In this document: in pieces, positions 4,331 through 44,031 of the stretch
How the letters are laid out: every line of letters starts with the position of its first letter
Numbering within the stretch: the first letter of the stretch is position 1
Source of the DNA: Akkermansia muciniphila
GTDB lineage: Bacteria; Verrucomicrobiota; Verrucomicrobiia; Limisphaerales; BJHT01
NCBI GenBank assembly: GCA_945861535.1
Contig: CAMAUZ010000013.1
Location: 37,944-101,943 of the forward strand
Direction: 5' to 3'
DNA length: 64,000 bases
Translations under genes and position numbers: made by a program
The notes under the pieces: model-generated
Seen by the model: the letters and a program-made list of their open reading frames with translations, nothing else
What the model was told of the DNA's origin: nothing
Database searches by the model: none

Positions 4331-4456
4331 TGAAATCCCCGCGCCTTTCGCTCCATCGTGTGCAACCCACGCTTGTTCCACGCGAACCTATGTTGACGGA
4401 TGCCTGACACGGCGAGAGGCTACCATCGGCCGCATGAATACCCATCAACTAAGCGA

Positions 4457-6961: not shown

Positions 6962-6975
6962 AAAAACCACGACCT

Positions 6976-8388: not shown

Positions 8389-8395
8389 TTCAAAC

Positions 8396-11425: not shown

Positions 11426-11428
11426 CAC

Positions 11429-15381: not shown

Positions 15382-15405
15382 GAAATCAAACCAGCGTATT
15401 TCATC

Positions 15406-16767: not shown

Positions 16768-16769
16768 AT

Positions 16770-23968: not shown

Positions 23969-25228
23969 ATGAACACCCCACACACACCCGTCATCGACCG
24001 CCGCCATTTCCTCCGTGGCCTTGGAATGGCCCTCGCACTCCCGGCTTTCGAAAGCCTGAACGTCGGTTCCGCGGCCACGACTCCGAGCGTCACGCCGAGG
24101 CGGCTCATTTGCATTGGCAATCACCTCGGATTTTGGCCGGGCGGATTTTTTCCGACGGCGGCAGGGCGCGACTATGCGATCAGCCAGACGCTGGCTCCGT
24201 TGCAGGCGCATCGCGGGGATTTCACGGTCTTCTCGCATCTCGATCACAACTCGAAAGGCGGGCATGGCGCGGTGCATTCGTTTCTGTCGGGCGTGAAGAA
24301 GGAGGAATCGGCGGGGTTCCCGGAGAAGAACATTTCGATCGACCAGGTGGCTGCGGAGCATGTCGGTGCGGCGACGCGGTATCCTTCGATCACGGCGGGG
24401 ATTGGTGAAGGCACGAACATGTGCTGGAACCGGGCGGGGGTGAACCTTCCGCCGGTGGACAATCCGGCGCGTCTGTTTGAGGCGCTGTTTGTCGAGTCGA
24501 ACGCGGGCGCGAAGGCGTCGGAACGCGAGCGTCTGTCGAACCGGGCGAGTGTGCTCGATGCGCTGCGCGAGTCGGCGAAGCAATTGGGCGGCAGTCTGGA
24601 TGCGGCAGATCGCGGAAAGCTCGACCAGTATCTGACGTCAGTGCGCGATGTGGAGCGTCGGCTGAAAATGTCCGAGGCGTGGCTGGGGCGGCCGAAGCCG
24701 AAGTCGCCTATCGACCCGGTGAAAGACGAGGAGCGGATGCAGATCGAGGAGATCCCGCTGTTTCTGGATCTGATGACGCTGGCGCTGCAGACGGATTCGA
24801 CGCGCGTGGCGACGTTTGAAGTCCCGCTCGGATTCCACACTACTGACCTCAATGTCGGCAGCTATCATGGGCTGTCACACCACAGCAAGCAGGAGGGCCT
24901 GCTCACGCAGTTGCAGGTCGTGGAGAAATACCTCATGACGCAATTCGCGCACTTGTTCGGGAAGTTGAAGGAGGCGGGATTGATGGACAGCACGCTCGTG
25001 GTGATCGGCAGCGGCATGGGCAATGCCTCGAATCATTCGAATCGCGATTTGCCGGTGCTGCTCGCGGGTGGCGGGATCAAGCATCAGGGCCATGTCGTGT
25101 GCCCGGCGGAGGAGCGGAAGCGCATTCAGTTGTCGAATCTCTGGCTGTCCACACTCCAGTGGTTCGGGGTCGAGCGCGAGCGCTTCGGGCGCAGCACGGG
25201 GACGTTTACGCCGATGAAGATTGGCTGA
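23969..25228 (+). CDS. DUF1552 domain protein with twin-arginine signal (pair 4, precedes its DUF1592 partner)
   Basis: IDRRHFLRGLGMALALPAFES Tat motif. LQTDSTRVATFEV, SYHGLSHHSK and GSGMGNASNHSNRDLPVLLAGGG blocks. Confidence 0.8.
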   Translation: MNTPHTPVIDRRHFLRGLGMALALPAFESLNVGSAATTPSVTPRRLICIGNHLGFWPGGFFPTAAGRDYAISQTLAPLQAHRGDFTVFSHLDHNSKGGHGAVHSFLSGVKKEESAGFPEKNISIDQVAAEHVGAATRYPSITAGIGEGTNMCWNRAGVNLPPVDNPARLFEALFVESNAGAKASERERLSNRASVLDALRESAKQLGGSLDAADRGKLDQYLTSVRDVERRLKMSEAWLGRPKPKSPIDPVKDEERMQIEEIPLFLDLMTLALQTDSTRVATFEVPLGFHTTDLNVGSYHGLSHHSKQEGLLTQLQVVEKYLMTQFAHLFGKLKEAGLMDSTLVVIGSGMGNASNHSNRDLPVLLAGGGIKHQGHVVCPAEERKRIQLSNLWLSTLQWFGVERERFGRSTGTFTPMKIG

Positions 25229-25250
25229 TTCAACCCACGAAATCTCACAT

Positions 25251-25323
25251 TTTTTACCGCACATCTTTTTGCCGGCCGCCCTCCGTCCCGGTGATAGCCG
25301 GCAAAAAGATGTGTGGTAAAAGA
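25251..25323. repeat. Palindromic element copy 1 (inside-out arm order: TTTTTACCGCACATCTTTTTGCCGGC - 20 nt - GCCGGCAAAAAGATGTGTGGTAAAAGA)
   Basis: The arms are reverse complements with 1 mismatch. Lies in the 111-nt spacer between the DUF1552 and DUF1592 genes. Confidence 0.85.
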
Positions 25324-25339
25324 TAACTGAAAAATACCC

Positions 25340-27808: not shown

Positions 27809-27828
27809 ATGAACAGGAGACAGGCAGC

Positions 27829-27875
27829 AGGAGACAGGAGACAGCCTGTCCACTGCCTCCTTTCTCCTGTCTCCT
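27829..27875 (+). other. Perfect 13-bp inverted repeat (AGGAGACAGGAGA / TCTCCTGTCTCCT, 21-nt loop) in intergenic spacer; possible terminator or regulatory hairpin
   Basis: Verified base by base. Embedded in CAGGAGA heptamer repeats (27814, 27828, 27835). No downstream T-tract. Confidence 0.4.
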
Positions 27876-27881
27876 AGAACT

Positions 27882-29315
27882 ATGAACATCGCCCGCCGAT
27901 TCTTCTTGAAGCTCCTCCCGCTGCTTGCGTGGCGGGGCCACTCCCTGCTGGCTGCCGACTCCAAATCGCAGCCGCTTTTCCTTGGACAAGGAACGATGTC
28001 CGGTGAAGTCACCGATTCCACCGCTCTGCTGCAAACCCGCCTGACGCTCGCTGCGCAACTCGATGCCGACGGCGATCTGCCGGGTGCCGCGGGCGTGGCG
28101 TGTTTTGAATGGAGCACGCACCCGGACTTCCGCGATGCGCAGCGCACTCCGTTTCAACCGGCGGCTGAAAAACGCGACTTCATCGTGCGTGCCGAACTCA
28201 CCGGCCTGAAGCCGAACACCACTTACCATTACCGCGCCGTCTATGGTGTCACGGAGGCCGCGGCCCAGGCCGGACCGAGTTGTTCGTTCAAGACCTTGGC
28301 GGGCGGAGCCATCAATACGCCGGTGCGCTTCATTGTCGGCAGTTGCATGAACTACAACAAATTCCTGCACGGCAAGAAGGGCAAAGCGGGCGGCCCTCTG
28401 ACCGCCACGGATGAGGACAAACGCCTCGGCTATCCATCCTTCGACGCGATGCTGAAACTGCATCCGGACTTCTTCGTCGGCACGGGTGACATCGTTTATT
28501 ACGACAACCCGATGCGCGTGGCCGAGACCGTCCCGCAGTTGCGCAAATGCTGGCACGAGCAGGCTCGGTTTCCTCGGCTGATCGACTTCTTCCGCAGTGT
28601 CCCCGCGTATTGGTCAAAGGACGACCACGACTTTCGCTACAACGAATCGGATAACTCCACCGACCATCTGCCGCTTCCGAAAACCGGCATCGACATGTTC
28701 CGCGAGCAATTGCCCCTCGTGGCCACCGGCAGCGACAAGCCCACCTACCGCACGCATCGTGTCAGTAAGGATCTGCAAATCTGGCTCACCGAAGGACGCG
28801 ACTATCGCTCACCGAATGAGATGGCTGACGGCCCTCAAAAATCGCTCTGGGGCGCGGAGCAGCGCGAATGGTTGAAGACGACGCTGAAGGCGAGTGATGC
28901 GAAATGGAAAATCCTCATCTCGCCCACGCCGATGGTCGGGCCCGACGACCTAAAGAAGATCGACAATCACGCCGACCTCAGCGGCTTCCGCCACGAAGCG
29001 GATGCCTTCTTCGCCTGGCTGAAGGAGAACAAGATCGGACATTTCACAATCATCTGCGGAGACCGTCACTGGCAGTATCACAGCATCCATCCATCGGGTG
29101 TCGAAGAGTTCGCCTGCGGTGCGCTGAACGATGAGAATTCCCGAATGGGCGTCGCGCCCGGCGACAAGAATGGCTCCGACCCGCAAGCGCTGGTCAAACA
29201 GGAATACACCTCTCCGACCCCCAACGGTGGCTTCCTGCAAATCACCGCTGGAGATCACCTGCTCATCGAGCATTTTGACTCGCGAGGAAAGCAGCTTCAC
29301 CGCGTCAACCGATAG
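27882..29315 (+). CDS. PhoD-like metallophosphatase (alkaline phosphatase D family)
   Basis: RR-containing signal MNIARRFFLKLLPLLAWRG. Motifs FFVGTGDIVYYDN, WSKDDHDFRYNES and ICGDRHWQYHS. Confidence 0.7.
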   Translation: MNIARRFFLKLLPLLAWRGHSLLAADSKSQPLFLGQGTMSGEVTDSTALLQTRLTLAAQLDADGDLPGAAGVACFEWSTHPDFRDAQRTPFQPAAEKRDFIVRAELTGLKPNTTYHYRAVYGVTEAAAQAGPSCSFKTLAGGAINTPVRFIVGSCMNYNKFLHGKKGKAGGPLTATDEDKRLGYPSFDAMLKLHPDFFVGTGDIVYYDNPMRVAETVPQLRKCWHEQARFPRLIDFFRSVPAYWSKDDHDFRYNESDNSTDHLPLPKTGIDMFREQLPLVATGSDKPTYRTHRVSKDLQIWLTEGRDYRSPNEMADGPQKSLWGAEQREWLKTTLKASDAKWKILISPTPMVGPDDLKKIDNHADLSGFRHEADAFFAWLKENKIGHFTIICGDRHWQYHSIHPSGVEEFACGALNDENSRMGVAPGDKNGSDPQALVKQEYTSPTPNGGFLQITAGDHLLIEHFDSRGKQLHRVNR

Positions 29316-29335
29316 CATCCGAGCCAACCATCACC

Positions 29336-30652
29336 ATGCCCGCATCCAATCTTCCGTCCTATTCGTCCACCCGCCGTTTTTTCCTGCGAGCCACGGGAGT
29401 GAGCCTTGCCCTTCCGCTGCTCGAATCTCTGGGCGCGCGCGTCTTCGCTCAGAACTCCGCCGTCGGCACTTTGCCGGGGAAGGCGGCGGGCGCGGGGCGT
29501 CCCAAGCGGATGGTGTGCATCGGCAACTTGCTCGGCTTTTATCCTCAGGCGTTTTTCCCGGCGAGAACGGGAGCGGACTACGATCTGCCTGAGTCCATCG
29601 AAGCGCTGAAGCCGCATCAGAAGGACTTCACGCTTTTCTCCGGGCTCGACCACGGCGTGAAGGGCGGGCACTTCGCGATGAGTTCCTTCCTCAGCGGCGT
29701 GCGCACCGCGGATGCCAAGGGCATGCCCGAGGGCAACATCACCGTGGACCAGCGGGCGGCGGAAACGATGGGTGCTGCCACGAGGTTTCCTTCGCTCGCC
29801 CTTGGATCCGAGAGCGGCATTCATGGCGGCTGCCTCATGTCGTGGACACGCAGCGGCACGCGGGTGCCGCCGATCAGCACGCCGCGCGAGCTGTTCCGGA
29901 AACTGTTTGTCTCCGATGGTGCCGCCGACCTCGCAGCGTCGCTGGATCGCCTCGATATGAAAGGTTCGATCCTTGACGCGGTCCAGGGCGATGCAAAAAC
30001 CCTCGAACGCCGTCTGGGCCAGCGGGACAAGGAGAAGCTGGACGAGTATTTCACCTCTGTCCGAGATGTGGAAAAGCAGATCGAGCTGCGCCGCAAGTGG
30101 GCCGGCGTGCCCAAGCCTGATCCGAGAATGCCGGAGCCAGCGAACAAGGATTTTGTATCCGACCTGCCGGTGATGTATGACTTGATCGCGCTCGCCCTGC
30201 AGACTGATTCCACCCGCATCGCCACTCTGGAGATTGGCGGAGATTTCGAGGCTTCGGCCTTCGATTTGAAGGCCGGTTATCACAGCCTCTCGCACCACGG
30301 ACAGCGTGAGGAAGCGATCAAGGGCCTCATCAAGATGGAACGCTATCAGATCGAGCAGTTCGCGCGGTTCATCGCCAGGCTCAAATCCATCGAGGACGGC
30401 GCGGGCACGCTGCTGGATCACTCGATGGTTCTCTTCGGCAGCGGCATGGGCAACGCCAACTCGCACACGAACAACAACCTGCCGATCGTCCTGGCCGGCG
30501 GCGGTTTCAAGCACGGCGAGCACCGGACGTATCCGGCGAAGGGGCTCGGCCGCCAGCCCTTGTGCAATCTCTATCTGACCATGCTCCATCGCTTCGGCGC
30601 GGAGGTGAAAGCGTTTGGCACCAGCACCGGCACACTCACCGGCCTCGCATGA
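29336..30652 (+). CDS. DUF1552 domain protein with twin-arginine signal (pair 5)
   Basis: STRRFFLRATGVSLALPLLES Tat motif. LQTDSTRIATLEI, GYHSLSHHGQ and GSGMGNANSHTNNNLPIVLAGGG blocks. Close paralog of the 23969 gene. Confidence 0.8.
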   Translation: MPASNLPSYSSTRRFFLRATGVSLALPLLESLGARVFAQNSAVGTLPGKAAGAGRPKRMVCIGNLLGFYPQAFFPARTGADYDLPESIEALKPHQKDFTLFSGLDHGVKGGHFAMSSFLSGVRTADAKGMPEGNITVDQRAAETMGAATRFPSLALGSESGIHGGCLMSWTRSGTRVPPISTPRELFRKLFVSDGAADLAASLDRLDMKGSILDAVQGDAKTLERRLGQRDKEKLDEYFTSVRDVEKQIELRRKWAGVPKPDPRMPEPANKDFVSDLPVMYDLIALALQTDSTRIATLEIGGDFEASAFDLKAGYHSLSHHGQREEAIKGLIKMERYQIEQFARFIARLKSIEDGAGTLLDHSMVLFGSGMGNANSHTNNNLPIVLAGGGFKHGEHRTYPAKGLGRQPLCNLYLTMLHRFGAEVKAFGTSTGTLTGLA

Positions 30653-30731
30653 GCCGGCAAAAAGATGGGCGGTAAAAGATAGGAGGATTTTGCAAGCGAT
30701 TCTATTTTTCACCGCCCATCTTTTTGCCGGC
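30653..30731. repeat. Palindromic element copy 2
   Basis: GCCGGCAAAAAGATGGGCGGTAAAAGAT - loop - TTTTTCACCGCCCATCTTTTTGCCGGC. The stem has 21 perfect bp. Starts at the base after the DUF1552 TGA. The internal ATG frame hits TAG after 5 codons. Confidence 0.9.
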
Positions 30732-30743
30732 TAAAGACCACCC

Positions 30744-31529
30744 ATGCCAATCCACCGCACCATCGAGACCGTCCGCCCGACTCAATCCGAGTTCGGTCAA
30801 ATCGCCTTTGACGTGATGAAGTGCGTGTATGAGATCCACAATGAATTCGGCCGCTTCTTTGATGAAGCGGTTTACAAGCGCGAACTCGCCGCGAGGATGC
30901 CTGGCGTGGAACTGGAGGTCCCTGTCACCGTCTCCCATAAAACGTTCTCGAAGCTCTACAAGCTCGACGTTCTGGCGCACCGGCGAGGCGTTTTCGAGTT
31001 CAAGGCTGCCGAGACTATTGTTCCCCGTCATCGCGGCCAGACCATCAACTCCCTGCTCCTCTTTGACCTCCCGCACGGCAAACTCATCAACGTCCGGCCC
31101 GAGCGAGTCAACGATGAGTTCGTGAACTGCCACCTGCGGCTGGAGGCGTTGCGAAATCCATCCGTGGACACAGCCAGTTTCGTTTCCACCGTTGCCGGAG
31201 CAGCCTTCTTTCATGACCACCTGCTCACCTTGATCCGCGACTGGGGTTCCGGCCTTGAGACCGGGCTTTACGAAGAAGGACTCTCTCACTTTCTTGGTGG
31301 CGATGAGCGGGCTCTACAGCCTGTGCCGGTGATGGGATCCAAAGGACATCTGCACGATCAAAAGATGCGTCTGTTGGCACCGGATGTCGCCTTCAAGCTC
31401 ACCGCCTTTCCCGATCGGCTGGAGGCCTTTGAGACGCATGCCCGACGCCTACTTCAGCATACTTCGCTTAAAGCCATTCATTGGGCCAACATCACTCATA
31501 GCCATGTTACCTTCACGACCATCCACTAA
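30744..31529 (+). CDS. GxxExxY-like / PD-(D/E)XK-fold protein with an extra C-terminal region (function unknown)
   Basis: FGRFFDEAVYKRELAARMPGVELEVPVTVSHK...YKLDVLAHRRGVFEFKAAE...GKLINV follows the GxxExxY-family layout (acidic LDV plus ExK). The identification is by eye only. Confidence 0.45.
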   Translation: MPIHRTIETVRPTQSEFGQIAFDVMKCVYEIHNEFGRFFDEAVYKRELAARMPGVELEVPVTVSHKTFSKLYKLDVLAHRRGVFEFKAAETIVPRHRGQTINSLLLFDLPHGKLINVRPERVNDEFVNCHLRLEALRNPSVDTASFVSTVAGAAFFHDHLLTLIRDWGSGLETGLYEEGLSHFLGGDERALQPVPVMGSKGHLHDQKMRLLAPDVAFKLTAFPDRLEAFETHARRLLQHTSLKAIHWANITHSHVTFTTIH

Positions 31530-31536
31530 CTTTTTC

Positions 31537-31610
31537 GCCGGCAAAAAGATGTGCGGTAAAAAATGGGGACTCCTGTTTTTCCTATTTTTCACCGCCCATC
31601 TTTTTGCCGG
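31537..31610. repeat. Palindromic element copy 3 (overlaps the start codon and signal peptide of the downstream gene)
   Basis: GCCGGCAAAAAGATGTGCGGTAAAAAATGGGGA - loop - TTTTTCACCGCCCATCTTTTTGCCGG. Starts 8 nt after the upstream TAA. Confidence 0.9.
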
Positions 31611-34035
31611 ACCTCCGGAGATCCGACGTTTCCTCACCACCTATTGCAACGACTGCCACGGCGCGGAAAAACAAAAGGGCGATCGGCGCTTTGATAAGCT
31701 GCTGCTGCCCGCCACCAAGGTGGACACGCTGATCGATCTCAAAGACATCCTCGATCAAATCAACCTCGGCGAAATGCCGCCGAAAAAATCGAAGCAACCG
31801 TCGCAGCTGGAGCAAAAGGTCTTTATCGAGCAGGCGACTCTCGCGCTCACCGAAGGTCGTGAGAGTCTCGCCAGCACCGATGGCAGCAGCGTGTTGCGTC
31901 GTCTCAACCGCCGCGAATACATCAACACCATCGGCGACCTGTTCGCGATGAATATGGCGGCCTTCGATCCCACCACGAAGTTTCCGCGCGACCAGTCCGC
32001 CGAGCACATGGAGAATCTCGGCGATGTGCTCCAGACCTCGGGCTATCTGTTGGAGCAATATCTCGATGCGGCGGACGCCATCGTTAAGAAGGCGTTCGCA
32101 GTTCAAAAGCAGCCGGATGAGCGCGTTTGGAACTTCCGCGAGAACTTCAAGCCGCAGCAGGAATTAAGCGGCCCGCATCGCCGCCTCCAAAACGCATTTA
32201 TCGGCCTTTACGAATGCATGGCCACCCCAAACCACGAGGGCGGCTACGGCTTCATCAGCGACTTTCAGCAAGGAGTGCCGGTGGACGGAATCTACGAGAT
32301 TCGCGTCCTTGCCCAGGCCATGAACCGGCAGCATCCGTATGATCCGAAAATCTTCGGGACCGACTCACGCGAGCCTTTCCGCCTCGGCTTGGTGCCCGGC
32401 GATGCGAAAGCCGGTCCGCTGTATCAGCCGCAGCCGCTCCAGCCCATGCTCGCCGAGCAGGCTCTGCAAGATGGCGAACCCGAATGGCACACGATGAAGG
32501 TCTGGCTGGATGCCGGACATACACCGCGATTTGTTTTCCTCAATGGCCCGAAAAGCGCACGCAGTTCCTGGGCCCGAATCGTGGAATACCACAAGGACAA
32601 ATGGCCGGCGACCACATCGAAGCGGGACCGCAAGAACGGCCTCGGCATCGTCGAAAATCGCATTCTCAGCATCGTCGAAGGAAAAGTGCCGCACATTCGC
32701 ATCAGCGAGGTGCAGATTCGCGGACCCATCGTCGAGCAGTGGCCGCCCGCTCCCCAGCAGGCCGTTTTGGGAAAGACTGCCTTCGCTCCGGAGAAGATGC
32801 GCGAAGTCCTCCAATCCTTCGCCGACCGAGCTTATCGCCGTCCGGCCAGCCAGGCCGAAGTGGATCGACTCATGGCCGTCGCCAGGAAACGCACGAGCAC
32901 CGGCCGTTCGCCGCAGGAAGGTCTGAAGGACGCTCTCAAGGCAGCGCTCTGCTCGCCCGCCTTCATCTATCTCTCGCAGGATGCCGTGGAGCCAAAAAGT
33001 GACTCGAAAGCACGTCCCAAGCTCACCGCCTACGCGCTCGCCTCGCGGCTGTCCTATTTCCTCTGGTCAACCATGCCGGATGCGGAGTTGCTCCGGCTGG
33101 CGCACAGTCAGGAGCTAACCAAGCCAGCGGTGCTCATTGCACAGACGCGCCGCATGTTGGCCAGCCCGCGCTCCGAGGCCTTCGTGTCGGGCTTTCTCGA
33201 CAGTTGGCTGAACCTCCGCAGCCTCGGAGGCATGCCGCCGGATCGGAAGGATTTTGAAACGTATTACTCCAAGGGCCTGGAGCACGCCTTCAAGCAAGAG
33301 ACACGGCTTTTCATGCGCGACCTCATCGAGCGCGATGCCAGCATCGTAAACTTCCTCAACAGCGACTACGGCTTCGTCAATCAACCGCTCGCCACGCACT
33401 ACGGTCTCGGTGAACTCGGCGATCCGGCCAAGGCGCATGAGTTCCGCAAAGTCAGCTTCAAGACCGACAAGCGCGGCGGCCTGCTCGGCATGGGCTCCGT
33501 GCTCACCATCACCGCCAACGGCATCGAGACTTCGCCCGTCGTGCGTGGGGTCTATCTGCTGGAAAACATCCTCGGCACGCCGCCGCCGCCGCCGCCCGAT
33601 GACGTGCCTGCTATCGATCCCGATGTGCGCGGAGCCAAATCCATGCGCGAGTTGCTCAGCAAACATCGCGAATCGCCGAACTGCGCCGGCTGCCATCAAA
33701 AGATCGACCCACTCGGATTCGCGTTGGAGAACTTTGATCCCATCGGAGGCTGGCGGACGAGCTATGGCAAAACCCCGATCGACACCGCCGGAGAACTGCC
33801 CAGCGGCGATAAGTTCTCGGACGTCGCCGGCCTGAAGGGAATCCTCGTCAAACGCCAGGCCCTCTTCGCCCGGATGCTCACCGATCGCCTCCTCACCTAC
33901 GCTTGCGGTCGCCGCATCGGTGCGCTCGACGAGCCCACCGTGGCAAGAATCGTTGCCGAAATGCCGAGGCACAAACACGGCCTCCGCTCACTTCTCGAAG
34001 CCGTAGTGACGAGCGAACTGTTCCTCAGCCGTTGA
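31549..34035 (+). CDS. DUF1592/DUF1587/DUF1588/DUF1585-family cytochrome-c-motif protein (pair 5)
   Basis: ATG 31549 is the first in-frame start after the upstream gene. N-terminus MCGKKWGLLFFLFFTAHLFAG, then CNDCHGAEKQKGDRRFD, GEMPPKKSKQP, RRLNRREYINTIGDLF, LASRLSYFLWSTMPD, SPVVRGVYLLENILG, CAGCHQKIDPLGFALENFD. Confidence 0.85.
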   Translation: MCGKKWGLLFFLFFTAHLFAGPPEIRRFLTTYCNDCHGAEKQKGDRRFDKLLLPATKVDTLIDLKDILDQINLGEMPPKKSKQPSQLEQKVFIEQATLALTEGRESLASTDGSSVLRRLNRREYINTIGDLFAMNMAAFDPTTKFPRDQSAEHMENLGDVLQTSGYLLEQYLDAADAIVKKAFAVQKQPDERVWNFRENFKPQQELSGPHRRLQNAFIGLYECMATPNHEGGYGFISDFQQGVPVDGIYEIRVLAQAMNRQHPYDPKIFGTDSREPFRLGLVPGDAKAGPLYQPQPLQPMLAEQALQDGEPEWHTMKVWLDAGHTPRFVFLNGPKSARSSWARIVEYHKDKWPATTSKRDRKNGLGIVENRILSIVEGKVPHIRISEVQIRGPIVEQWPPAPQQAVLGKTAFAPEKMREVLQSFADRAYRRPASQAEVDRLMAVARKRTSTGRSPQEGLKDALKAALCSPAFIYLSQDAVEPKSDSKARPKLTAYALASRLSYFLWSTMPDAELLRLAHSQELTKPAVLIAQTRRMLASPRSEAFVSGFLDSWLNLRSLGGMPPDRKDFETYYSKGLEHAFKQETRLFMRDLIERDASIVNFLNSDYGFVNQPLATHYGLGELGDPAKAHEFRKVSFKTDKRGGLLGMGSVLTITANGIETSPVVRGVYLLENILGTPPPPPPDDVPAIDPDVRGAKSMRELLSKHRESPNCAGCHQKIDPLGFALENFDPIGGWRTSYGKTPIDTAGELPSGDKFSDVAGLKGILVKRQALFARMLTDRLLTYACGRRIGALDEPTVARIVAEMPRHKHGLRSLLEAVVTSELFLSR

Positions 34036-34086
34036 TTCCTTGACCCAACGAAAACGACACAATCCTTTATGAAGCCAACCTGCATA

Positions 34087-34160
34087 GCCGGCAAAAAGAT
34101 GGGCGGTAAAAAATGGGGACTTCTCTTCTCCTTATTTTTTACCGCCCATCTTTTTGCCGC
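34087..34160. repeat. Palindromic element copy 4 (overlaps the start and signal peptide of the sulfatase fragment)
   Basis: GCCGGCAAAAAGATGGGCGGTAAAAAATGGGGA - loop - TTTTTTACCGCCCATCTTTTTGCCGC. Confidence 0.9.
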
Positions 34161-34722
34161 TCCTCCCGCCGACAAAGCGCCGGGCAAACAATACAACGTG
34201 CTGTTCATCGCCGTCGACGACTTGAACGACTGGGTCGGGGCCTTCGGCGGCGCGCCCCAAAAGAAGTCGGCGACGCCCAAGCTGGATAAATTCGCGAAGA
34301 GCGGCTCGGTCGTTTTCCAGCAGGCGAATTGCGCGGGCCCGGTCTGTGGCCCGTCGCGCTCGGCTTTGCTGTCGGGCTTTATGCCGAATCGGTCGGGTGT
34401 TTACGGCAACGCTCATAACATGCGCAACTCCGCGCTCGTGCAGACCCACCTCACGCTGCCGGAGTATTTTTCGAAGCATGGCTACCGCACGCTCTCAAGC
34501 GGCAAGATTTTCCATAAACATGCCGGCGACGAGGGCCATTGGGCGTTTGACCAGTGGGTCGCCACTGAAGGCGGCAGCGGTTCGCAGGTTGATCCCCAGC
34601 GTCTGACCTCCCGGAGTCGCAACCTGATTGACGGCAAGCCCGCGCCATTTGCCCCGGCCAAGGGCGAGGGCAACGCCGACGGCGAAGGCGGGGGCACGGA
34701 ATTCTCCTGGGGACCGGCCTGA
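34099..34722 (+). pseudogene. Sulfatase, N-terminal half only (truncated)
   Basis: NVLFIAVDDLNDW and the CGPSRSALLSGF (CxPxR) signature are present. The ORF ends after about 207 codons, whereas the intact sulfatases here are about 450-540 aa. Alternative start ATG 34069. Confidence 0.7.
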
Positions 34723-34949
34723 AGTAGTCGCGGTGCGCTCAAGCATGAATCAGTCGCTGCAAATGGATTGCCCCGCCCCGAAATCGTGGCGCGTCTGGCT
34801 GCCGCCGCCGCCGAATGGAACCGCGGCCTCATCGCCCCCGCCTTCGGCAACAATCCTTTCGGCGGCCTCATCAACCGCACCATACTGGAGAAAAATTCGA
34901 CCCCTTGAAGCGCAATGAGGACTACCAGTCTTTCGCAACCACGCATCCA

Positions 34950-35501
34950 ATGAACCCACGCACCCTTCTTTTATCCATCGCTCTTTCAGCCAGCGCCGTC
35001 GCCGGTTTCGCGCAGGACTCCGCGGATGTCATCGTCTATGGCTCCACGCCCGGCGGGTTCTGCGCGGCCATCGCTGCGGCGCGCGAGGGGGCTTCGGTTA
35101 TTTTGCTGGAGCCGACGGAGCACGTCGGCGGGCTGAGCACGGGCGGGCTGAGCCACTGCGACTCGAATCAGATGCGGCGGGAGACTTTGATGGGACTCTT
35201 CGACGAGTGGCATCGGCGCGTGGTGAAGGACTACACGGACCGCGGGCTTGCAGCTCCCTACGATGCGGCGCTTAAGGACACCGCACGCTGGACGTTTGAG
35301 CCGCATGTGGCGATGCGCGTGACGACGGCGATGCTCAAGGAAGCGGGCGTGGTGGTGCGGACCGGGCGGTATTTGAAATCGGTCACGAAAGAAGGGCCGC
35401 GCATCACTTCGCTCACCGCGAAGGACGGCAAGTTCACGGCGAAAGTATTCGTGGACGGCTCCTACGAAGGCGACCTCATGGCTGCCGCTGGCGTGGACTG
35501 A
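34950..35501 (+). CDS. FAD-dependent oxidoreductase, N-terminal part; ends at an in-frame TGA
   Basis: Signal-like MNPRTLLLSIALSASAVAGFA. Dinucleotide-binding VIVYGSTPGGFCAAIAAAREG...LEPTEHVGGLSTGG. Confidence 0.7.
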   Translation: MNPRTLLLSIALSASAVAGFAQDSADVIVYGSTPGGFCAAIAAAREGASVILLEPTEHVGGLSTGGLSHCDSNQMRRETLMGLFDEWHRRVVKDYTDRGLAAPYDAALKDTARWTFEPHVAMRVTTAMLKEAGVVVRTGRYLKSVTKEGPRITSLTAKDGKFTAKVFVDGSYEGDLMAAAGVD

Positions 35502-35570
35502 ACGATTGGCCGCGAGGGGCGCGCCGAGTTCGGTGAATCCTACGCGGGGAAGCAGTATCCCAAAAAGAAA

Positions 35571-37022
35571 ATGGACATCAGCGGCTTCGATGACGCGGGC
35601 AAACTGCTGCCGCTCGTGACGACCAGCGACGCCGGGCCGGACGAAGCGGGCGACAAGAACATCATGACCTACAGCTTCCGGCTCTGCCTCACGCGAGACC
35701 CGGCCAAGATGGTTTCCATGCCCGCGCCGACGAACTACAACCCCGCCCGATTCGAGCTGGCGCGCCGCGCGCTCAAAGTCGGTGTCAAAGCGGGCTTCGA
35801 CCTCTACCCGTTGCCGGGCAACAAGCTCGACGGCAACAACTCCATTCACGGACAGGTTTCCCTCGGCCTTGTCGGTGCCGGCAACGACTGGCACAGCGCC
35901 GATGAAGCAGGCCGGCAGAAGATTTGGGAGGACCACAAACAATACACGCTTGAGTTCCTGCACTTCCTCCGCACCGACCCCGCCGTGGCGCCGAAAGTCC
36001 GTGGCGAGTTTGCCGGCCTCGGTCTTTGCCAAGACGAGTTTGCGGCGACCGCCCACTTTCCGCCTGCGCTCTATGTGCGCGAATCGCGGCGGATGAAGGG
36101 CCTGCATGTGATCTCGCAAAAGGACATCATTACCTCGCCGGAAAAGGCCGACCCCATCGCCGTCTCGTCGTTCCCGATTGATTCGCACGACTGCCAGCGC
36201 GTCGCGTTGAAAGACGGTGGCGTCATCAATGAGGGCACGATTTTTCCCGTGCGAGTCCCCGGCAGCAAAGTGGGCTACGCCTACCATGTGCCCTATCGCT
36301 CCGTGCTGCCGCAGGCCAGCCAATGCAACAACCTGCTCGTGCCCGTCGCGCTTTCCTCCACGCATGTCGCGATGTCATCGCTTCGGATCGAAGGCGCATG
36401 GATGGCCATCGGCCAGGGCGCGGGTGTCGCCGCGGCGCTGGCGGCGAAACAATCCGTCGCCGTGCAAGACCTGCCCTATCCCGTCCTGCGCCAGCGACTC
36501 CTCGCGCAAGGGCAAGTGCTCGACCTCCCCGCAGTTTCCAAACCAGCGGCGGCGAAGGAGGCTGACTTCATCCCCGTGAAGTCGCTCCCCGGCATCGTGC
36601 TCGACGACGCCGATGCGCAACTCGTCGGCGCATGGACGCAGTCCACGAACTTCAAACCACACATCGGCAGCGGCTACCGCGTCCACGGAGCCAAGGACGC
36701 CCGCGCCGACGGCACAGCCACCGCCACCTTCCGCGTCAAAGTGCCGACGTCCGGCGAATACCAGGTGCTGATGTCCTACTCCGCGCATGAAACCCGCGCC
36801 AAAAACGTGCCCGTCACCATCGTCAGCGGCACCCGCGAGACGAAGCTCACCGTGGACCAAACCAAGCCCATGCCCGCCGGTCAGCACTTTCAGCCCATCG
36901 GCACGGCGACGCTCACATCGGATGGCGAAACAACTCTTCGAATCCAAACCACCGACACCACCGGTTTCGTCATCCTCGACGCCGTGCAGTTGGTTTTGAG
37001 CCGGCAAAAAGATGGGCGGTAA
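35571..37022 (+). CDS. Continuation of the same FAD-dependent oxidoreductase (same frame; open from 35502)
   Basis: Frame identical to 34950..35501. Codons 35502-35570 read TIGREGRAEFGESYAGKQYPKKK without a stop. The last 7 codons and the TAA lie inside palindromic element copy 5. Confidence 0.7.
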   Translation: MDISGFDDAGKLLPLVTTSDAGPDEAGDKNIMTYSFRLCLTRDPAKMVSMPAPTNYNPARFELARRALKVGVKAGFDLYPLPGNKLDGNNSIHGQVSLGLVGAGNDWHSADEAGRQKIWEDHKQYTLEFLHFLRTDPAVAPKVRGEFAGLGLCQDEFAATAHFPPALYVRESRRMKGLHVISQKDIITSPEKADPIAVSSFPIDSHDCQRVALKDGGVINEGTIFPVRVPGSKVGYAYHVPYRSVLPQASQCNNLLVPVALSSTHVAMSSLRIEGAWMAIGQGAGVAAALAAKQSVAVQDLPYPVLRQRLLAQGQVLDLPAVSKPAAAKEADFIPVKSLPGIVLDDADAQLVGAWTQSTNFKPHIGSGYRVHGAKDARADGTATATFRVKVPTSGEYQVLMSYSAHETRAKNVPVTIVSGTRETKLTVDQTKPMPAGQHFQPIGTATLTSDGETTLRIQTTDTTGFVILDAVQLVLSRQKDGR

Positions 37023-37074
37023 AAAATGTGATGAAATGGATTCCCCATCTTTTACCGGCCATCTTTTTGCCGGC
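37000..37074. repeat. Palindromic element copy 5
   Basis: GCCGGCAAAAAGATGGGCGGTAAAAAATG - loop - TCCCCATCTTTTACCGGCCATCTTTTTGCCGGC. Contains the upstream gene's stop codon (37020-37022). Confidence 0.9.
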
Positions 37075-37096
37075 CTGTATGCCCAACATTACTCCT

Positions 37097-39691
37097 ATGA
37101 TCACACGCCTCACATTCCTCGGTTTGATTCTCGGTTTATCCTTCTCGTCCGCAGATGCTCAGAATGCCGCCGTCGGTTCGCCCCGGCTGGTTCTGGATGC
37201 GGACACGGGCATAACCATTCGCGAGGGCTTCGACGCTGAATTGCTCTACGAGGTGCCCAAGTCTCAGGGCTCGTGGGTGGCGATGGCGTTTGATCCGAAA
37301 GGCCGGCTCATCGTTTCCGATCAGGATGACAAGGGTGTGTTCCGCGTGACGCTGCCCACCGGGGGTGCCGGAATCAAAGTCGAGAGCCTGCCCGGATTTC
37401 CTTACGAGCCGGTGGACTGGGGGAGGCGCAAGGTCGGCGGTGCGTATGGCTTTCTCTACGCGTTCGATAGTCTCTACATGGCGAACATGCGGGGCTTTTA
37501 CCGCATCCGCGACACAGATGGGGACGACCAGTTTGACGAATTCACGCTGCTGAAGAAACTCGACATGGGCTACGAGCACTCGGCGCACTGCATCATCCAG
37601 ACGGCTGACGGCAAGGGGCTTTATCTGGTGAGCGGAAACTTCACCCGAGTGCCAAAAGGGACCGTTCCCTCGCAGCCGCCGGTATGGCAGGAGGACACGC
37701 TCATGCCCGTGATTCCCGACCCTTCGGGCCACGCCGTGGGACTCAAGCCTCCGGGCGGCTGGATTTGCCGCATTTCACCCGACGGCAGCGACTGGAGGAT
37801 GATTGCGTCCGGCTTCCGCAACTCGGTGGACATCGCGCTGAATCGCGAGGGCGAACTTTTCACTTACGATTCCGACATGGAGTTTGATGTTGGCGTCCCG
37901 TGGTATCGGCCCACGCGCATCAATCACGTCACCAGCGGCGCGGAGTTTGGCTGGAGGGCGAACTCGGGGGTGTGGCTGGACTATTTCGCCGACAGCCTCG
38001 GCTCGGTGCTCGACATCGGCCCCGGCTCCCCGACGGCCATCAGCTTCGGGCATCACTCGAAGTTTCCGGCGGAGTTTCAGGACAAGCTCTTCATCTGCGA
38101 CTGGACGTTCGGCACGATTTTCACCGTGGAGCTGCAGGAAAGCGGTTCGAGCTACACCGGCACGAAGTCGGAGTTTCTCCACGGCAGCCCGCTGAACATC
38201 GCGGCGATGCGCTTCGGGCCGGACGGTGCGATGTATTTCGTCACCGGCGGACGCACGACAGCCTCGCGGCTCTATCGAGTCCGCCACACAGGCGCGCCGA
38301 CGACGGGCGTGCCGAGGACACTGCTGGCCAACAGCGAACTGCGGGTGTTGCGGCATTCGTTGGAGAAATTCCATGCACGCGGCGAGAGCGCCGACGCCGT
38401 GGAAAAGGCATGGCCGCATCTCGCGCACGCTGACCGCAGCATTCGCTACGCAGCGCGCATCGCCATCGAGAACCAGGGCGTGGCGCTCTGGCAGGAAATG
38501 GTCTTCGCGGAGAAGAACCCGCGCGCGGCGATTTATGCCGCCATCGCGTTGACCCGCCATGGCGACAAATCCCTGTCCGGGCGGCTGATTGACAAGCTCG
38601 CCGAGGTGCCATTTGGCTCGCTTGCGCAAGAAGACCAGCTCGCGCTGCTCCGCGCCTACGCGCTGTGTTTTATGCGATTTGGCCTGCCCGCCGAGGATAA
38701 GACGGCGGCAGTCATCGCCAGGCTGGATGCTCATTTCCCGTCTAAGGATGACACGGTGAACGCCGAACTATGCCGTGTGCTGTCATCGCTCGATGCTCCC
38801 ACAGTGGCGCGGAAAACCATCGGGCTGATGAAAGCCACCCGCGTCGAGACAGTGGCCTACGACAAGGCCATGCTGGGCCGTCACGAGTATGGCGCGGCCA
38901 TTTTGAAGATGATGGCCAACACGCCCAACACGCGAAATATCCACTACGCGTATTTCCTGCGGCGCGTGCGAAGCGGGTGGACGCTCGAGGACCGCAAATA
39001 CTTCTTCGGCTGGCTGAACGAGGCGTTGGCCAAGGACGGCGGCAAGAGCTTTGCCGGATACATCCGGGCCATTCGCAAGGACGCCATCGCGCAACTGGAG
39101 ACCAAGGATGTCGAGCTGATGGCCGGGTTGCTGGAGGACTTTCCCGCTTTCGACCTTTCCAAACTCCCGAAGCCCAAAGGCCCGCCTGTCGCATGGACGG
39201 TGGAGACGGCGATGAACCTGTTTGAGCCGGAGCTTCGCGGCCGGGATTTCGCGAACGGGAAGAAGATGTTCGCCGCCGGATACTGCATCGCCTGTCATCG
39301 CGTCGGCGGCGAAGGCGGCCACTCTGGTCCTGACCTCGGCTCGCTGGGAAATCGCTTTTCCATCCGGGACATTCTCGTCGCCATCTGTGAACCCAGCGCC
39401 TCGGTCTCCGACCAATACCTCGCCAGCGTGGTGAAGCTCAAAGACGGCGACACGCTCAACGGCCGCCTCATTTTCAAGAACGACAAGGAAGTCGGCGTCG
39501 CCACGAATCCGTTTGATTTGAACCAGGTCACGAAAGCGCCGGCGGACCAGGTGGTCGGCATCGCTTCCTCGCAAGTTTCGATGATGCCATCGGAGCTGCT
39601 CTCAGGCATGAACCGCGATGAGCTGATGGACCTGATGGCCTATCTGCTCTCAGGCGGAAACTCGCAGCACAAGGCTTTCAAAAAGGAATGA
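37097..39691 (+). CDS. PVC-type heme-binding protein: putative membrane-bound dehydrogenase (beta-propeller) + HEAT-like repeats + C-terminal cytochrome c domain
   Basis: Signal peptide MITRLTFLGLILGLSFSSADA. C-terminal GYCIACHRVGGEGGHSGPDLGSLG heme c motif. Alternative starts are 37079 or 37028. Confidence 0.75.
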   Translation: MITRLTFLGLILGLSFSSADAQNAAVGSPRLVLDADTGITIREGFDAELLYEVPKSQGSWVAMAFDPKGRLIVSDQDDKGVFRVTLPTGGAGIKVESLPGFPYEPVDWGRRKVGGAYGFLYAFDSLYMANMRGFYRIRDTDGDDQFDEFTLLKKLDMGYEHSAHCIIQTADGKGLYLVSGNFTRVPKGTVPSQPPVWQEDTLMPVIPDPSGHAVGLKPPGGWICRISPDGSDWRMIASGFRNSVDIALNREGELFTYDSDMEFDVGVPWYRPTRINHVTSGAEFGWRANSGVWLDYFADSLGSVLDIGPGSPTAISFGHHSKFPAEFQDKLFICDWTFGTIFTVELQESGSSYTGTKSEFLHGSPLNIAAMRFGPDGAMYFVTGGRTTASRLYRVRHTGAPTTGVPRTLLANSELRVLRHSLEKFHARGESADAVEKAWPHLAHADRSIRYAARIAIENQGVALWQEMVFAEKNPRAAIYAAIALTRHGDKSLSGRLIDKLAEVPFGSLAQEDQLALLRAYALCFMRFGLPAEDKTAAVIARLDAHFPSKDDTVNAELCRVLSSLDAPTVARKTIGLMKATRVETVAYDKAMLGRHEYGAAILKMMANTPNTRNIHYAYFLRRVRSGWTLEDRKYFFGWLNEALAKDGGKSFAGYIRAIRKDAIAQLETKDVELMAGLLEDFPAFDLSKLPKPKGPPVAWTVETAMNLFEPELRGRDFANGKKMFAAGYCIACHRVGGEGGHSGPDLGSLGNRFSIRDILVAICEPSASVSDQYLASVVKLKDGDTLNGRLIFKNDKEVGVATNPFDLNQVTKAPADQVVGIASSQVSMMPSELLSGMNRDELMDLMAYLLSGGNSQHKAFKKE

Positions 39692-39887
39692 TCCCACGCA
39701 CCACATTCCTGGTAAGAATAGATCCGCTGGAGCGGAGCCAAAGCCAACGCCCACATCCGCACCCTCGCCCTCGAAAACCTGACGCTTGCGAGGTGTCCAC
39801 CAAACACAGGCAAGCGCCCGCGGATAACCCCTCCCAAAATCAATCATTCGTGTTCGACAAACCTCCGCGATTCAAAATCAATCCGCC

Positions 39888-41804
<1,917 letters not shown>

Positions 41805-41857
41805 AAATTTCTGAACGTAGCAAGATGACATGCTCACACACAAGGACCGGGGTTTGG

Positions 41858-41932
41858 GCCGGCAAAAAGATGGGCGGTAAAAGATGGGGACTGCTGTTCT
41901 TCCTGTTTTTCACCACACATCTTTTTGCCGGC
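41858..41932. repeat. Palindromic element copy 6 (overlaps the start and signal peptide of the downstream gene)
   Basis: GCCGGCAAAAAGATGGGCGGTAAAAGATGGGGA - loop - TTTTTCACCACACATCTTTTTGCCGGC. Confidence 0.9.
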
Positions 41933-43444
41933 GAACTGGTGGTCTATCCGCCCGTGCCGGGACTGGCGGCGTCGGGACATTACAGAGTGCGCGTGCGTTC
42001 CATCGGCGGTGAATGGCAGAGCGCCTTTGCGTGGGAGACGGCTTGCAAGACCATCGAGAAGAAGACGGACGCCTACTTCGACACGCTGGCGGGATGGACG
42101 CACGCGTACGTGAATTTTGAAACCGACGGCGCGGTAGAGGTCGAAATCACCCGCGCGAACGGCCAGCCGATTCGCACGGCGGCGGTGCATCCGCGGCGCA
42201 AGGCGGCGGCGTGGTCCGTCGTGGATGGCAGGGCGCTCGTGCGGCTCGACCAGCCGTGTCTCGTCGCGGTGGACATTGACGGTCAGATGGACGCGCAGGA
42301 CACCGGCAAGGGCTACAAAGGCCCGCCGATTCACACGGTCTCGATTTTTGCCAACCCGCCGCTGGCCGGAAAACCGAAGCCCGGCAACCCCGGCGTGCTC
42401 ACGGTGAAGCCGGGCGAAAAGCCGCCAACCGACGGGCCGTGGACCACGCTCTATTTTCTGCCGGGGGTTCACGACCTCGGGCTGGCGTTCCCACTGCGCG
42501 CGAACCGCCAGTATTACCTCCCCGGTGACGCGATGGTTTATGGCACGCTCTCCAGCCGGAAATGGGGCGAGGGAAAAAACATCCGCATCTTCGGCCACGG
42601 CACGTTGTCCGGGGCGCGGCTGAAACATCCCGGGCATGTGCAGCCGAAAGTTTCCGACAAAGACCACGGGCTCTATCGCCCCATCGAAATCGTCGGCACC
42701 ACCGACACGCGCGTCGAGGGCATCACCATCGCCGACTCGGCCACGCACTCGCTCATGCTGGTGCATCCGCACCAGCCGGAACATCCCAACGCCGTGCGGT
42801 GGACGAAGATTTTCACCTGGCGCGCGAACGGCGACGGCATCAATCCTTTCGGCAACACGCTCATCGAGGACTGCTTCCTGCGCACGCAGGACGATTCGCT
42901 CTACGTGAACGGCCTCGGCCTCCGCCGCTGCGTGCTGTGGAACGATGCCAACGGCTCGTCGTTCGTGCTCTCCAGCCTGTCGAGCCTCGGCGACCGCAAG
43001 CTGGTCGTGGAGGACTGCGACGTCATCTACTCCCGCGCCAAATGGCATCACTGGAGCGGCGGTCGCGTCTTCAACCTGCGTGCAGAGAATGACGGCCCCG
43101 GCGGCGCGGGCGTCGTCTTCCGCAACATCAACATTGAAGACCCACGACCCACGCTGCAGCAGTTCTTTCTCTGCATGACCGTGCCGCCGCCGTACGCGAA
43201 GCGGGAAGCAAAGAGCAGCGCCGGCGACGTGGCCCGTGTCCTTTTCCAAAACATTTCCATCGCCGCACCGAGTGTGCTGGGCGAGCCGCAAATGCTGTGG
43301 GGAAACGCCAACGCCCGCATCCGCAACCTCACCTTCGAGAACCTTACGCTCGCCGGAAAACCCGCGCTCGCCGCGACATTTTTCAAAACGAACGAGCATG
43401 TCAGCGGCCTGAGTTTCCAGCCCAACACCGTGTCGAACCCGTGA
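41870..43444 (+). CDS. Secreted right-handed beta-helix glycoside hydrolase-like protein (GH28/GH49-like)
   Basis: N-terminus MGGKRWGLLFFLFFTTHLFAG. Motifs GITIADSATHSLML, WRANGDGINPFGN, RTQDDSLYVNG and VLWNDANGSSF. The alternative in-frame ATG 41825 also reads through the element. Confidence 0.6.
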   Translation: MGGKRWGLLFFLFFTTHLFAGELVVYPPVPGLAASGHYRVRVRSIGGEWQSAFAWETACKTIEKKTDAYFDTLAGWTHAYVNFETDGAVEVEITRANGQPIRTAAVHPRRKAAAWSVVDGRALVRLDQPCLVAVDIDGQMDAQDTGKGYKGPPIHTVSIFANPPLAGKPKPGNPGVLTVKPGEKPPTDGPWTTLYFLPGVHDLGLAFPLRANRQYYLPGDAMVYGTLSSRKWGEGKNIRIFGHGTLSGARLKHPGHVQPKVSDKDHGLYRPIEIVGTTDTRVEGITIADSATHSLMLVHPHQPEHPNAVRWTKIFTWRANGDGINPFGNTLIEDCFLRTQDDSLYVNGLGLRRCVLWNDANGSSFVLSSLSSLGDRKLVVEDCDVIYSRAKWHHWSGGRVFNLRAENDGPGGAGVVFRNINIEDPRPTLQQFFLCMTVPPPYAKREAKSSAGDVARVLFQNISIAAPSVLGEPQMLWGNANARIRNLTFENLTLAGKPALAATFFKTNEHVSGLSFQPNTVSNP

Positions 43445-44031
43445 AGGCAACCAACAGCATCAGGACCGCGCTGACACTCCTCACTACCCTGACCCTCGCG
43501 CTGTCGGTTCCTGCGTTGGCCGCAAATCTCCATCTCACCAATGGCGACCTGTTGGGATTCAAGTTCGACTCATGGCAAGGGGGCCATCGCGTGCCTTTCA
43601 TCGCGCGCTGGCCGGGAAAGATTCGCGCGGGCTCCGTCTCAGATCACCTTGTCTGCCAGCTCGATCTTCTCGCGACCTTCGCCGCGTTGACCGGTTCGGA
43701 CGCCTCCGCGCCGGACAGCGTGAACATGCTCCCGGTGCTCACGGGCACGCCATCGACGTCCGTGCGCCGGGAACTCGTGATCACGCCCCAACAAAAGACG
43801 CACATCGCCTTCCGGCACGACGAATGGATTTACATCGGCGCGCGAGGTGGCGGTGGTTTCGCCGGTGCCAAGCCAGGCGATCACGGCCCCGGCGGACCCG
43901 CGGCGCTGAAGCTTTCCGGCGAAGTGAACAGCGACATCGTGGATGGCAAGTTCGTACCCGGCGCCCCAGAGGAGCAGCTCGACGATCTCGGTTCGGACCC
44001 CGGCCAGAAGAAGAACGTGATCGGCCTGTAA
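43441..44031 (+). pseudogene. Sulfatase lacking the N-terminal catalytic half (signal peptide joined to the C-terminal domain)
   Basis: GTG 43441 overlaps the upstream TGA. KATNSIRTALTLLTTLTLALSVPALA is followed directly by WQGGHRVPFIARWPGKI...DDLGSDPGQKKNV. No CxPxR region. An in-frame TAA at 44029 is followed by the sulfatase-tail-like PEYAGWLRMRLADLL. Confidence 0.65.

Follow-up and report, generated by a model that had tools for sequence, protein, structure and literature searches.

Probable encoding of the signal peptide of a GH49-like enzyme by a palindromic repeat in Akkermansia muciniphila

The 64,000-nt window analysed here (Akkermansia muciniphila assembly GCA_945861535.1, contig CAMAUZ010000013.1, positions 37,944-101,943, forward strand; coordinates below are those of the window) contains a 75-nt palindromic repeat, copy G (41858-41932, plus strand), that very probably encodes the N-terminal Sec-type signal peptide of the GH49-like enzyme downstream, in replacement of the native signal segment. 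An earlier sequence-only reading of this DNA had proposed an element-encoded signal peptide at this place, and the position of the repeat peptide, which matches that of the presequences of orthologs, supports the proposal as far as sequence comparison can. In related metagenome-assembled genomes (MAGs), at least six unrelated families of predicted exported proteins begin with this 25-codon palindrome.

The repeat peptide in the signal slot of the GH49-like protein

Copy G is a near-perfect palindrome of two 33-nt arms (41858-41890 and 41900-41932) and a 9-nt loop (41891-41899), with a minimum free energy of -39.5 kcal/mol, and is separated by a 53-nt spacer from a PhoD-like phosphatase gene (39888-41804, plus strand), the end of which had been placed correctly at 41804. 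Both of the in-frame starts that had been named, an ATG 11 codons upstream of the palindrome (41825-41827, plus strand) and the element's own ATG (41870-41872, plus strand), do cross the repeat to give ...MGGKRWGLLFFLFFTTHLFAGELVVYPP. The frame, which is also open upstream back to 41183 within the preceding gene, reads ...AGKKMGGKRWGLLFFLFFTTHLFAG followed directly by ELVVYPP..., and continues through 503 aa of a GH49-like (beta-helix) protein. The gene of this predicted exported protein (41825-43444, plus strand) evidently has an element-encoded presequence and a mature part that begins at about 41930-41933 (G/ELVVYPPVPGL). Its 524-aa product has no Pfam or NCBIfam match, and more than 600 homologs at 75-86% identity, all of about 525 aa. 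A PDB sequence search matched the GH49 dextranase 6nzs over residues 128-371 (E = 1.4e-8) and isopullulanase (1wmr/3wwg, about 1e-5), and the earlier designation of "beta-helix glycoside hydrolase" is a reasonable prediction from this similarity of the mature part.

The comparison with orthologs lacking the element that had been suggested as a check was carried out on the 120 closest orthologs, of which 106 were scorable. All 106 possess an ordinary, classical presequence in the same slot, ending just before the conserved (D/E)LVVYPPVPGL. In the window protein and a relative 98% identical to it (P0002, loci L065/L066), the element peptide fills this slot exactly and homology begins at the 3' boundary of the element; P0003 (86% identity) lacks the element and carries a native signal. 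The element peptide occupies the slot only in this genome, in the 98%-identical relative and in a few diverged lineages. The presequence tail of P0010, which has lost the left arm, is identical to the element peptide at 8 of 12 positions (the mode for native presequences is 2-3). P0263, a 94-aa fragment (DLLVYPPVPGIEASGHYTVR), is a GH49-like ortholog with a diverged presequence of the element type (KMGGSRWGMMCFLFLAVHLFAA), so replacement in the GH49-like family reaches beyond the immediate relatives of the window protein. P0054 (locus L061) is intermediate, with a degenerate element that provides the ATG and the n-region, followed by a native hydrophobic core that has no ATG of its own. Between the window gene and its counterpart at L065, both of which carry the element, the ratio of nonsynonymous to synonymous changes (pN/pS) in the mature protein is 0.30, which indicates that the gene stayed functional after the element was acquired.

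An assembly chimera at a repeated sequence can scarcely account for the junction, and this explanation was rejected. The sources are metagenome assemblies, and many contigs bearing the GxxExxY gene described below are only about 1 kb long, which suggests breaks at repeats; yet the identical order of PhoD-like gene, 53-nt spacer, element and GH49-like gene is repeated in independent assemblies (L065, L066). The junction was seen in a contig of NCBI assembly GCA_945876395.1 and in an ENA contig, 8 contigs in total carry P0002, and, at 75 nt, the repeat falls short of the final assembly k-mer that the k141 names of the contigs imply.

In all four properties compared, the repeat peptide lies within the range of the native presequences. 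It is 21 residues long (36 from 41825), and the lengths of the 106 native presequences have 23 as their median and 20-38 as their 5-95% range; its n-region, MGGKR, has a charge of +2 (+5 from 41825; native median +1, range 0-5); and its h-region, WGLLFFLFFTT, lies within an uncharged run of 16 residues (native runs, 13-22). Hydrophobicity, scored as the maximum of the 9-residue mean Kyte-Doolittle values, is 2.39 (native 5-95% range 2.30-3.47). The putative c-region, H-L-F-A|G-E, has Ala at -1 and Leu at -3, a combination that is acceptable under the von Heijne rule, and native orthologs often end in ..A-A-G|E. By the genetic code, the A-rich 5' arm (GGC AAA AAG ATG GGC GGT AAA AGA) reads as a Gly/Lys/Arg n-region (G-K-K-M-G-G-K-R), the T-rich 3' arm, its reverse complement, reads together with the loop as a Phe/Leu h-region (W-G-L-L-F-F-L-F-F-T-T-H-L-F), and the terminal CTT TTT GCC GGC reads as the c-region L-F-A-G, whose residue at -1 is small and in which the GCCGGC end gives Ala-Gly. 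The peptide would then be recognised by Sec and cut by signal peptidase I after Ala20 or Gly21. In the opposite orientation the same copies have stops (MGGEK, then a stop), so only one side of the palindrome is usable.

The claim that no other hydrophobic N-terminus exists downstream holds insofar as residues 5-21 are the sole strongly hydrophobic stretch of the 524 aa, but does not extend to start codons, as in-frame GTG codons are present downstream (41939, 41954 and others), in sequence that is conserved in all orthologs. As between the two ATG codons, a start at 41825 is somewhat favoured over one at 41870, because 41870 lies in a stem of -40 kcal/mol, because an in-frame ATG precedes the palindrome by about 11 codons in nearly all coding copies of the repeat, and because the analogous upstream ATG is kept in two copies (L075 and L083) from which the element ATG is gone. 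In the predicted fold of the leader (-62.9 kcal/mol, z = -3.8), 41870 is base-paired in the long stem and 41825 is unpaired in a small loop; a start at 41825 gives a 36-aa presequence, within the native range. Translation would begin outside the hairpin, the elongating ribosome would melt the stem, and the ATG at 41870 would remain sequestered. Homology upstream of the palindrome was found only where the tail of a GxxExxY gene precedes the element, and none was found for copy G. No Shine-Dalgarno motif was found at genes in the window, nor a similar motif before its well-defined starts (25340, 27882, 29336, 39888, 52813), the leaders of which are A/C-rich; start-codon accessibility probably matters more than Shine-Dalgarno pairing in this window.

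Coding and non-coding copies of the palindrome

The 25-nt arm GCCGGCAAAAAGATGGGCGGTAAAA has 12 matches in the window at 0-3 mismatches, plus one weak half-copy; for the 25-mer of the loop region of the 41858-41932 repeat, 0 matches are expected by chance. The arms assemble into six full elements (B-G), each in a gap between plus-strand genes and all clustered within 17 kb of the window. Exactly three of them are open into the downstream gene (31537, 34087 and 41858), and copy G, the last of copies D, E and G, had rightly been counted as the third. Copy D (31537-31611, plus strand) gives MCGKKWGLLFFLFFTAHLFAG to a PSCyt1/PSD protein (31504 or 31549 to 34035), and copy E (34087-34161, plus strand) gives MGGKKWGLLFSLFFTAHLFAA to a truncated sulfatase (34069 or 34099 to 34722). 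Relative to copy D, copy G has the two replacements that had been reported, K->R (AAA->AGA) and A->T (GCC->ACA), as well as C->G at residue 2, and the changes in its Leu and Phe codons are purely synonymous, as had been read (CTC/CTT/CTG, CTA/TTA/CTG, TTT/TTC). The sulfatase behind copy E ends after 217 aa, versus at least 408 aa in its ortholog at L005, with a match limited to residues 8-203, and is probably a truncated pseudogene that still bears an element-encoded signal.

The other three full elements of the window are non-coding. Copy C (30653-30731, 79 nt), the loop of which contains stop codons, comes directly after the stop codon of a DUF1552 gene and is the left flank of a GxxExxY gene. 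Copy F (37000-37074) is followed by a DUF7133/cytochrome c gene that retains its own signal peptide (MITRLTFLGLILGLSFSSADA). Copy B (25252-25321) is intergenic and has its arms reversed, or "inside-out" (25252-25276 and 25297-25321), around a 20-nt spacer, which suggests that the basic unit is the arm and not the hairpin. The weak single arm (4152-4176, minus strand), GGTAAAAGATGGGGGGTAAAA, is of the variant type seen on the flanks of distant GxxExxY genes in L077 and L082.

An exact 22-mer of the arm, searched in species-representative MAGs, identified 60 loci in MAGs of Verrucomicrobiota and Planctomycetota, labelled Verrucomicrobiaceae, Chthoniobacteraceae, Prosthecobacter, Opitutus/Opitutae, Pirellula/Pirellulaceae and Planctomycetia. 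The protein families headed by the element include PSCyt1/PSD, PSCyt2 (L054), sulfatases, DUF7133-cytochrome c (L002) and a 720-740-aa protein of unassigned family (L035, L075); at L005 the element heads a full-length sulfatase, the ortholog of the gene behind copy E. The open reading frames (ORFs) opened by the arm ATG or the upstream ATG range from 144 to at least 1105 aa, some running off the contig, and begin M[CGFR]GK[KR]WGLL..FFTAHLFAG.

These copies bear the marks of coding sequence. The 13 distinct coding copies all share a length of exactly 75 nt and have no stops; their overall pN/pS is 0.43 and that of the loop 0.45, with hydrophobic replacements; and read-through into ORFs of at least 140 codons occurs 16 times in the signal-peptide frame, versus 4 and 4 times in the other frames. 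The copies at L075 and L083 lack the element ATG (ATT and AGG, respectively), yet keep the frame and the hydrophobic core. In P0010, P0263, L075 and L083, the peptide outlives the palindrome.

A protein search with a 42-aa profile matched only remnant ORFs of 49-74 aa. A HMMER search of cluster representatives yielded P0263, P0249 and P0258 but found mostly short fragments, because the members that stand for the large families have native signals. A metagenome scan with the open-frame pattern returned only 10 loci, and a scan of viral contigs returned 4 loci with single arms only and no link to phages.

It is very unlikely that the palindrome serves solely as a non-coding nucleic-acid element, for example a stabiliser resembling repetitive extragenic palindromes (REPs), a terminator or a protein-binding site, whose open frame is incidental and behind which the enzyme starts at an internal GTG (41939 or 41954) and remains cytoplasmic, or the gene is decaying. 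The equivalent intergenic positions of the non-coding copies C, F and B, the full retention of the hairpin in coding copies, the truncated gene behind copy E and the in-frame GTG codons just downstream would all fit this explanation, as would a single database ortholog (P0065) that is annotated from MHVYPP without a presequence. It is countered by the presequences of all 106 scorable orthologs, from which the whole family is predicted to be exported, by the conserved mature residues that internal starts would remove, by the uniform length, open frame, pN/pS and frame bias of the coding copies, by purifying selection on the gene after acquisition of the element, and by persistence of the frame even after decay of the arm ATG or the hairpin.

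Several observations nevertheless weigh against a signal function of the repeat. The hydrophobicity of the peptide falls near the bottom of the native range, the core being rich in Phe, and its export and cleavage are predictions from sequence. Copy E heads a sulfatase that is truncated and probably dead, so an open frame is no proof of function. Several of the coding copies are orthologous and do not represent independent events, and the taxonomy of the MAGs behind the spread over two phyla is uncertain, so that mis-binned contigs may inflate it. A consensus promoter scan found 0 promoters. Among the 52 physical full elements covered by the folding analysis, the hairpin of coding copies is as stable as that of non-coding copies (median -38.4 versus -38.8 kcal/mol); translation should be impeded by a hairpin of about -40 kcal/mol that spans the 5' coding region, and retention of the hairpin could mean that the main role of the repeat is at the nucleic-acid level.

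Other features of the window are of note. An FAD-dependent oxidoreductase-like gene just upstream of copy F appears to be split into two ORFs in different frames (34815-35501 and 35571-37022), which could be due to a frameshift, a pseudogene or a sequencing error. The DUF7133/cytochrome c gene has a native signal in the window (36997-37230, copy F being unused) versus an element-encoded signal in L002 (7577-7730), where the element came within a 119-nt block together with a remnant of the tail of a GxxExxY gene. The window is dominated by PSCyt/PSD genes, DUF1552/HXXSHH genes and sulfatases; pairs of PSCyt/PSD (DUF1592 and related) and DUF1552/HXXSHH genes recur as diverged paralogous blocks (4400-16800 and 25340-34035) with spacings of about 4.4 kb and 6.2 kb and 70-77% nucleotide identity.

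The GxxExxY gene unit and the hairpin

The unit to which the palindromes belong appears to be a GxxExxY/PDDEXK_3 gene (30744-31529, plus strand, 261 aa), which is bracketed in the window by copies C and D. Genes of this kind are bracketed by palindromes in at least ten loci of unrelated context, and it is whole palindromes, not single terminal inverted repeats, that flank them; the order element-gene-element is found at 81-85% amino-acid identity in L004/L024, L005, L021, L026, L042, L052 and L054, the left flanks of which are non-homologous. The palindromes would be the matching flanking repeats of a gene unit of nuclease-fold type. The GxxExxY protein has the PD-(D/E)XK fold (PF13366, TIGR04256), and its AlphaFold model (predicted local distance difference test score 91.7) consists of two tandem alpha/beta nuclease-like domains with Cas4 and MGME1 as the best structural matches; the literature on PDDEXK_3 describes a family of unknown function with multiple transfers.

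More distant GxxExxY homologs (57-78% identity) occur in unrelated contexts, flanked by diverged but matching arm variants (TGGTAAAAGATGGTGGGTAAAAGAT on both flanks in L077, TGGCAAAAATATGTKCGGCTAAATAT on both flanks in L079, and AGGCTAAAAATGAATGGCTAAAAATT upstream in L080), which indicates that the repeat changes together with the GxxExxY protein. The homologs with matching variants on both flanks are 60-71% identical, and the bracketed architecture was also noted at L083. In-frame stops (GGCTAAA, GGGTAA) interrupt the variant arms, and competence to encode a signal peptide is therefore limited to one sub-lineage. Each arm is made of two direct GGYAAAA-AT half-sites, and arm conservation is 0.87-0.88, versus 0.66 at third codon positions of the adjacent GxxExxY gene. 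Deviations within the family comprise 269 that are one-armed and 24 that are compensated, versus 34 expected; this lack of any excess of compensation points to sequence-specific recognition of the arm by a protein rather than to selection for pairing. An argument for RNA structure from covariation was dropped for want of an excess of compensatory changes in the family.

It is a real possibility, if not the favoured one, that the hairpin is kept chiefly as a cis-regulatory RNA or DNA structure that throttles translation, attenuates transcription or binds the GxxExxY protein, with signal coding second, an explanation that is compatible with an element-encoded signal peptide. Since coding copies fold as stably as non-coding copies, the hairpin may also modulate expression; the sequestration of the element start codon in the stem, the conservation of the arms above that of synonymous sites in the neighbouring gene, the direct half-sites and the constraint on arm sequence instead of pairing all agree with such a role. 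No Rfam family corresponds to the repeat, however: an Rfam 15 search of 24000-44000 returned only generic long hairpins, in the form of sub-threshold matches to miRNA precursors (at most 40 bits, versus gathering thresholds of 50-168). The inner stem GGGCGG..CCGCCC is followed by AUCUUUUUG, and a terminator consensus scan (loop of at most 8 nt) called no element and found no excess of terminators. Furthermore, decayed hairpins (P0010, L083) still head intact genes, and the structure is thus dispensable for the gene.

[quoted passage not shown] Its mutually complementary arms of 30-33 nt and its total length of 62-81 nt (mode 75) give it the small size and inverted repeats of a MITE; of 50 copies tested for target-site duplication, 37 have no flanking direct repeat, 12 have one of 1 nt and a single copy has one of 2 nt, which is the level expected by chance, and the classical MITE label was dropped for this lack of duplications. 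A parent insertion sequence with the same terminal inverted repeats and a transposase was not found, the only bracketed gene being GxxExxY/PDDEXK_3. The arms, which begin (G/T)(C/T)CGGCAAAAAG, contain no GTAG or CGTC. Assignment to the class of REPs or REPINs with REP-associated tyrosine transposases (RAYTs) was rejected on the absence of a GTAG/CGTC head and of a RAYT of the HUH/Y1 type, the flanked gene being of the PD-(D/E)XK type.

The lack of target-site duplications and the clustering of copies within 17 kb would also be expected if the N-terminus were an ordinary signal-peptide module spread by gene conversion or recombination, from which the intergenic palindromes were derived. The coding copies do form a tight subfamily with a common loop (WGLL...), and some of them travel as a block with a remnant of about 45 nt of the GxxExxY tail (L002, L017), which looks like recombination and not transposition. 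This origin is improbable all the same, as variant arms with in-frame stops belong to the same repeat family and cannot encode a signal peptide, perfect open-frame palindromes are attached to no gene (L067, L069, L073, L074), arms also occur inside-out, singly and in direct orientation, and nothing at the protein level accounts for the near-perfect dyad symmetry. For an element-encoded signal, the proposed course of events is that a copy of the palindrome arrives, by landing or by recombination, at the 5' end of a gene encoding an exported protein, where the fusion would be tolerated and the native signal could be lost.

Arms of the repeat are also found in other arrangements. Single arms, all in one orientation, occur in L028 (991, 1466, 4205 and 6850), in the IMG/VR contigs L086/L088 and in L056, and are sometimes followed by degenerate direct repeats of the arm, not by an inverted partner. 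In MAGs labelled Opitutus, tandem arrays with a period of 169 nt adjoin the GxxExxY gene (L052, 5600-6110; L053, 1950-2460; L036). The 169-nt unit consists of the head of a PSCyt gene, the 75-nt element and the tail of a GxxExxY gene, which suggests repeated duplication or recombination at the junction of the three, and the small ORFs P0121, P0122, P0126 and P0247 belong to these arrays. Another family of small ORFs, ...MGRAQP(C/F)ADFLFGKKMGGKRWGLLFSAFFTRKIFRAADRRDY... (P0124, P0125, P0254, P0256, P0257, P0260-P0262 and P0264-P0266), has the left arm and loop joined to a different repeat, not to the right arm.

Comparison with known repeats and implications

Translated palindromic repeats are known from Rickettsia, in which the Rickettsia palindromic elements (RPEs; Ogata et al. 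2000, reviewed in PMC2229807 and PMC10969869) are found both between genes and in frame within them. As with the 75-nt element, a translated palindromic segment is added in frame to otherwise conserved proteins; the analogy is functional only, as both sequence and host are unrelated. RPEs are 100-150 bp long, specific to Rickettsia and inserted internally, usually as surface loops. The 75-nt element of Planctomycetes-Verrucomicrobia-Chlamydiae (PVC) hosts, in contrast, forms a complete predicted N-terminal export signal and replaces a native module. The closest conceptual precedent is the fusion of a Yersinia YPAL / RU-2 MITE in YPO1552 (Delihas 2007, PMC2759123; PMC2229807), in which the hydrophobic ORF of a palindromic repeat is fused in frame and a predicted signal peptide is formed partly by the repeat. 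YPO1552 is a hypothetical protein of 144 aa with a signal that is only partly MITE-derived and with no orthologs bearing native signals, whereas here whole signals of conserved enzymes are concerned, in at least six families and with orthologs as controls. YPAL also has target-site duplications, unlike the 75-nt element.

In its genomic organization the element resembles the REP/REPIN elements with RAYT transposases, or REPtrons (PMC3733652), which are recognised by a GTAG or CGTC head. Both are hairpin repeats without target-site duplications, scattered between genes and occurring as inverted pairs in either order, and in both the repeats bracket a single-copy gene of the presumed partner and change together with it. 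The differences are that the arms here are 30-33 nt long, versus imperfect palindromes of 20-40 nt, that the partner is a PD-(D/E)XK protein and not an HUH/Y1 RAYT, and that the copy number of the 75-nt element is apparently low, at about 10 or fewer exact arm matches per MAG. The Correia elements of Neisseria (CREE/NEMIS) are likewise small inverted repeats near the 5' ends of genes that alter expression and can fuse in frame; their TA target duplications, integration host factor sites, promoters and cutting by RNase III have no counterpart in what was found for the 75-nt element, and no role as signal peptides has been described for them. A 2024 review of MITEs makes no mention of signal peptides.

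Before this analysis, then, the known cases were translated RPEs and one speculative Yersinia example of part of a signal. What appears to be new, judging by the comparisons above, is that an element encodes the whole signal, that native signals have been replaced in several families, and that the partner gene is of the PD-(D/E)XK type. More speculatively, the GxxExxY gene and its hairpins may constitute a system of PVC bacteria not described before, REPtron-like and either selfish or domesticated, in which one hairpin lineage became "signal-peptide competent" and acts as a portable cassette of start codon and signal that unrelated enzymes have acquired again and again. If so, the unit or its solo hairpins could sit at, or replace, the 5' ends of abundant genes for exported proteins without killing them.

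A palindrome with one A-rich and one T-rich arm yields a Lys-rich n-region and a Phe/Leu-rich h-region, which would explain the immediate conversion of a non-coding repeat into a protein module. Genes headed by the element may have been annotated from the wrong start or called pseudogenes, a point of practical concern for annotators. The widespread and uncharacterised GxxExxY/PDDEXK_3 family, now linked to specific DNA hairpins, may have become approachable by experiment as to its function. In these bacteria, repeat DNA seems to have been turned into working protein sequence.

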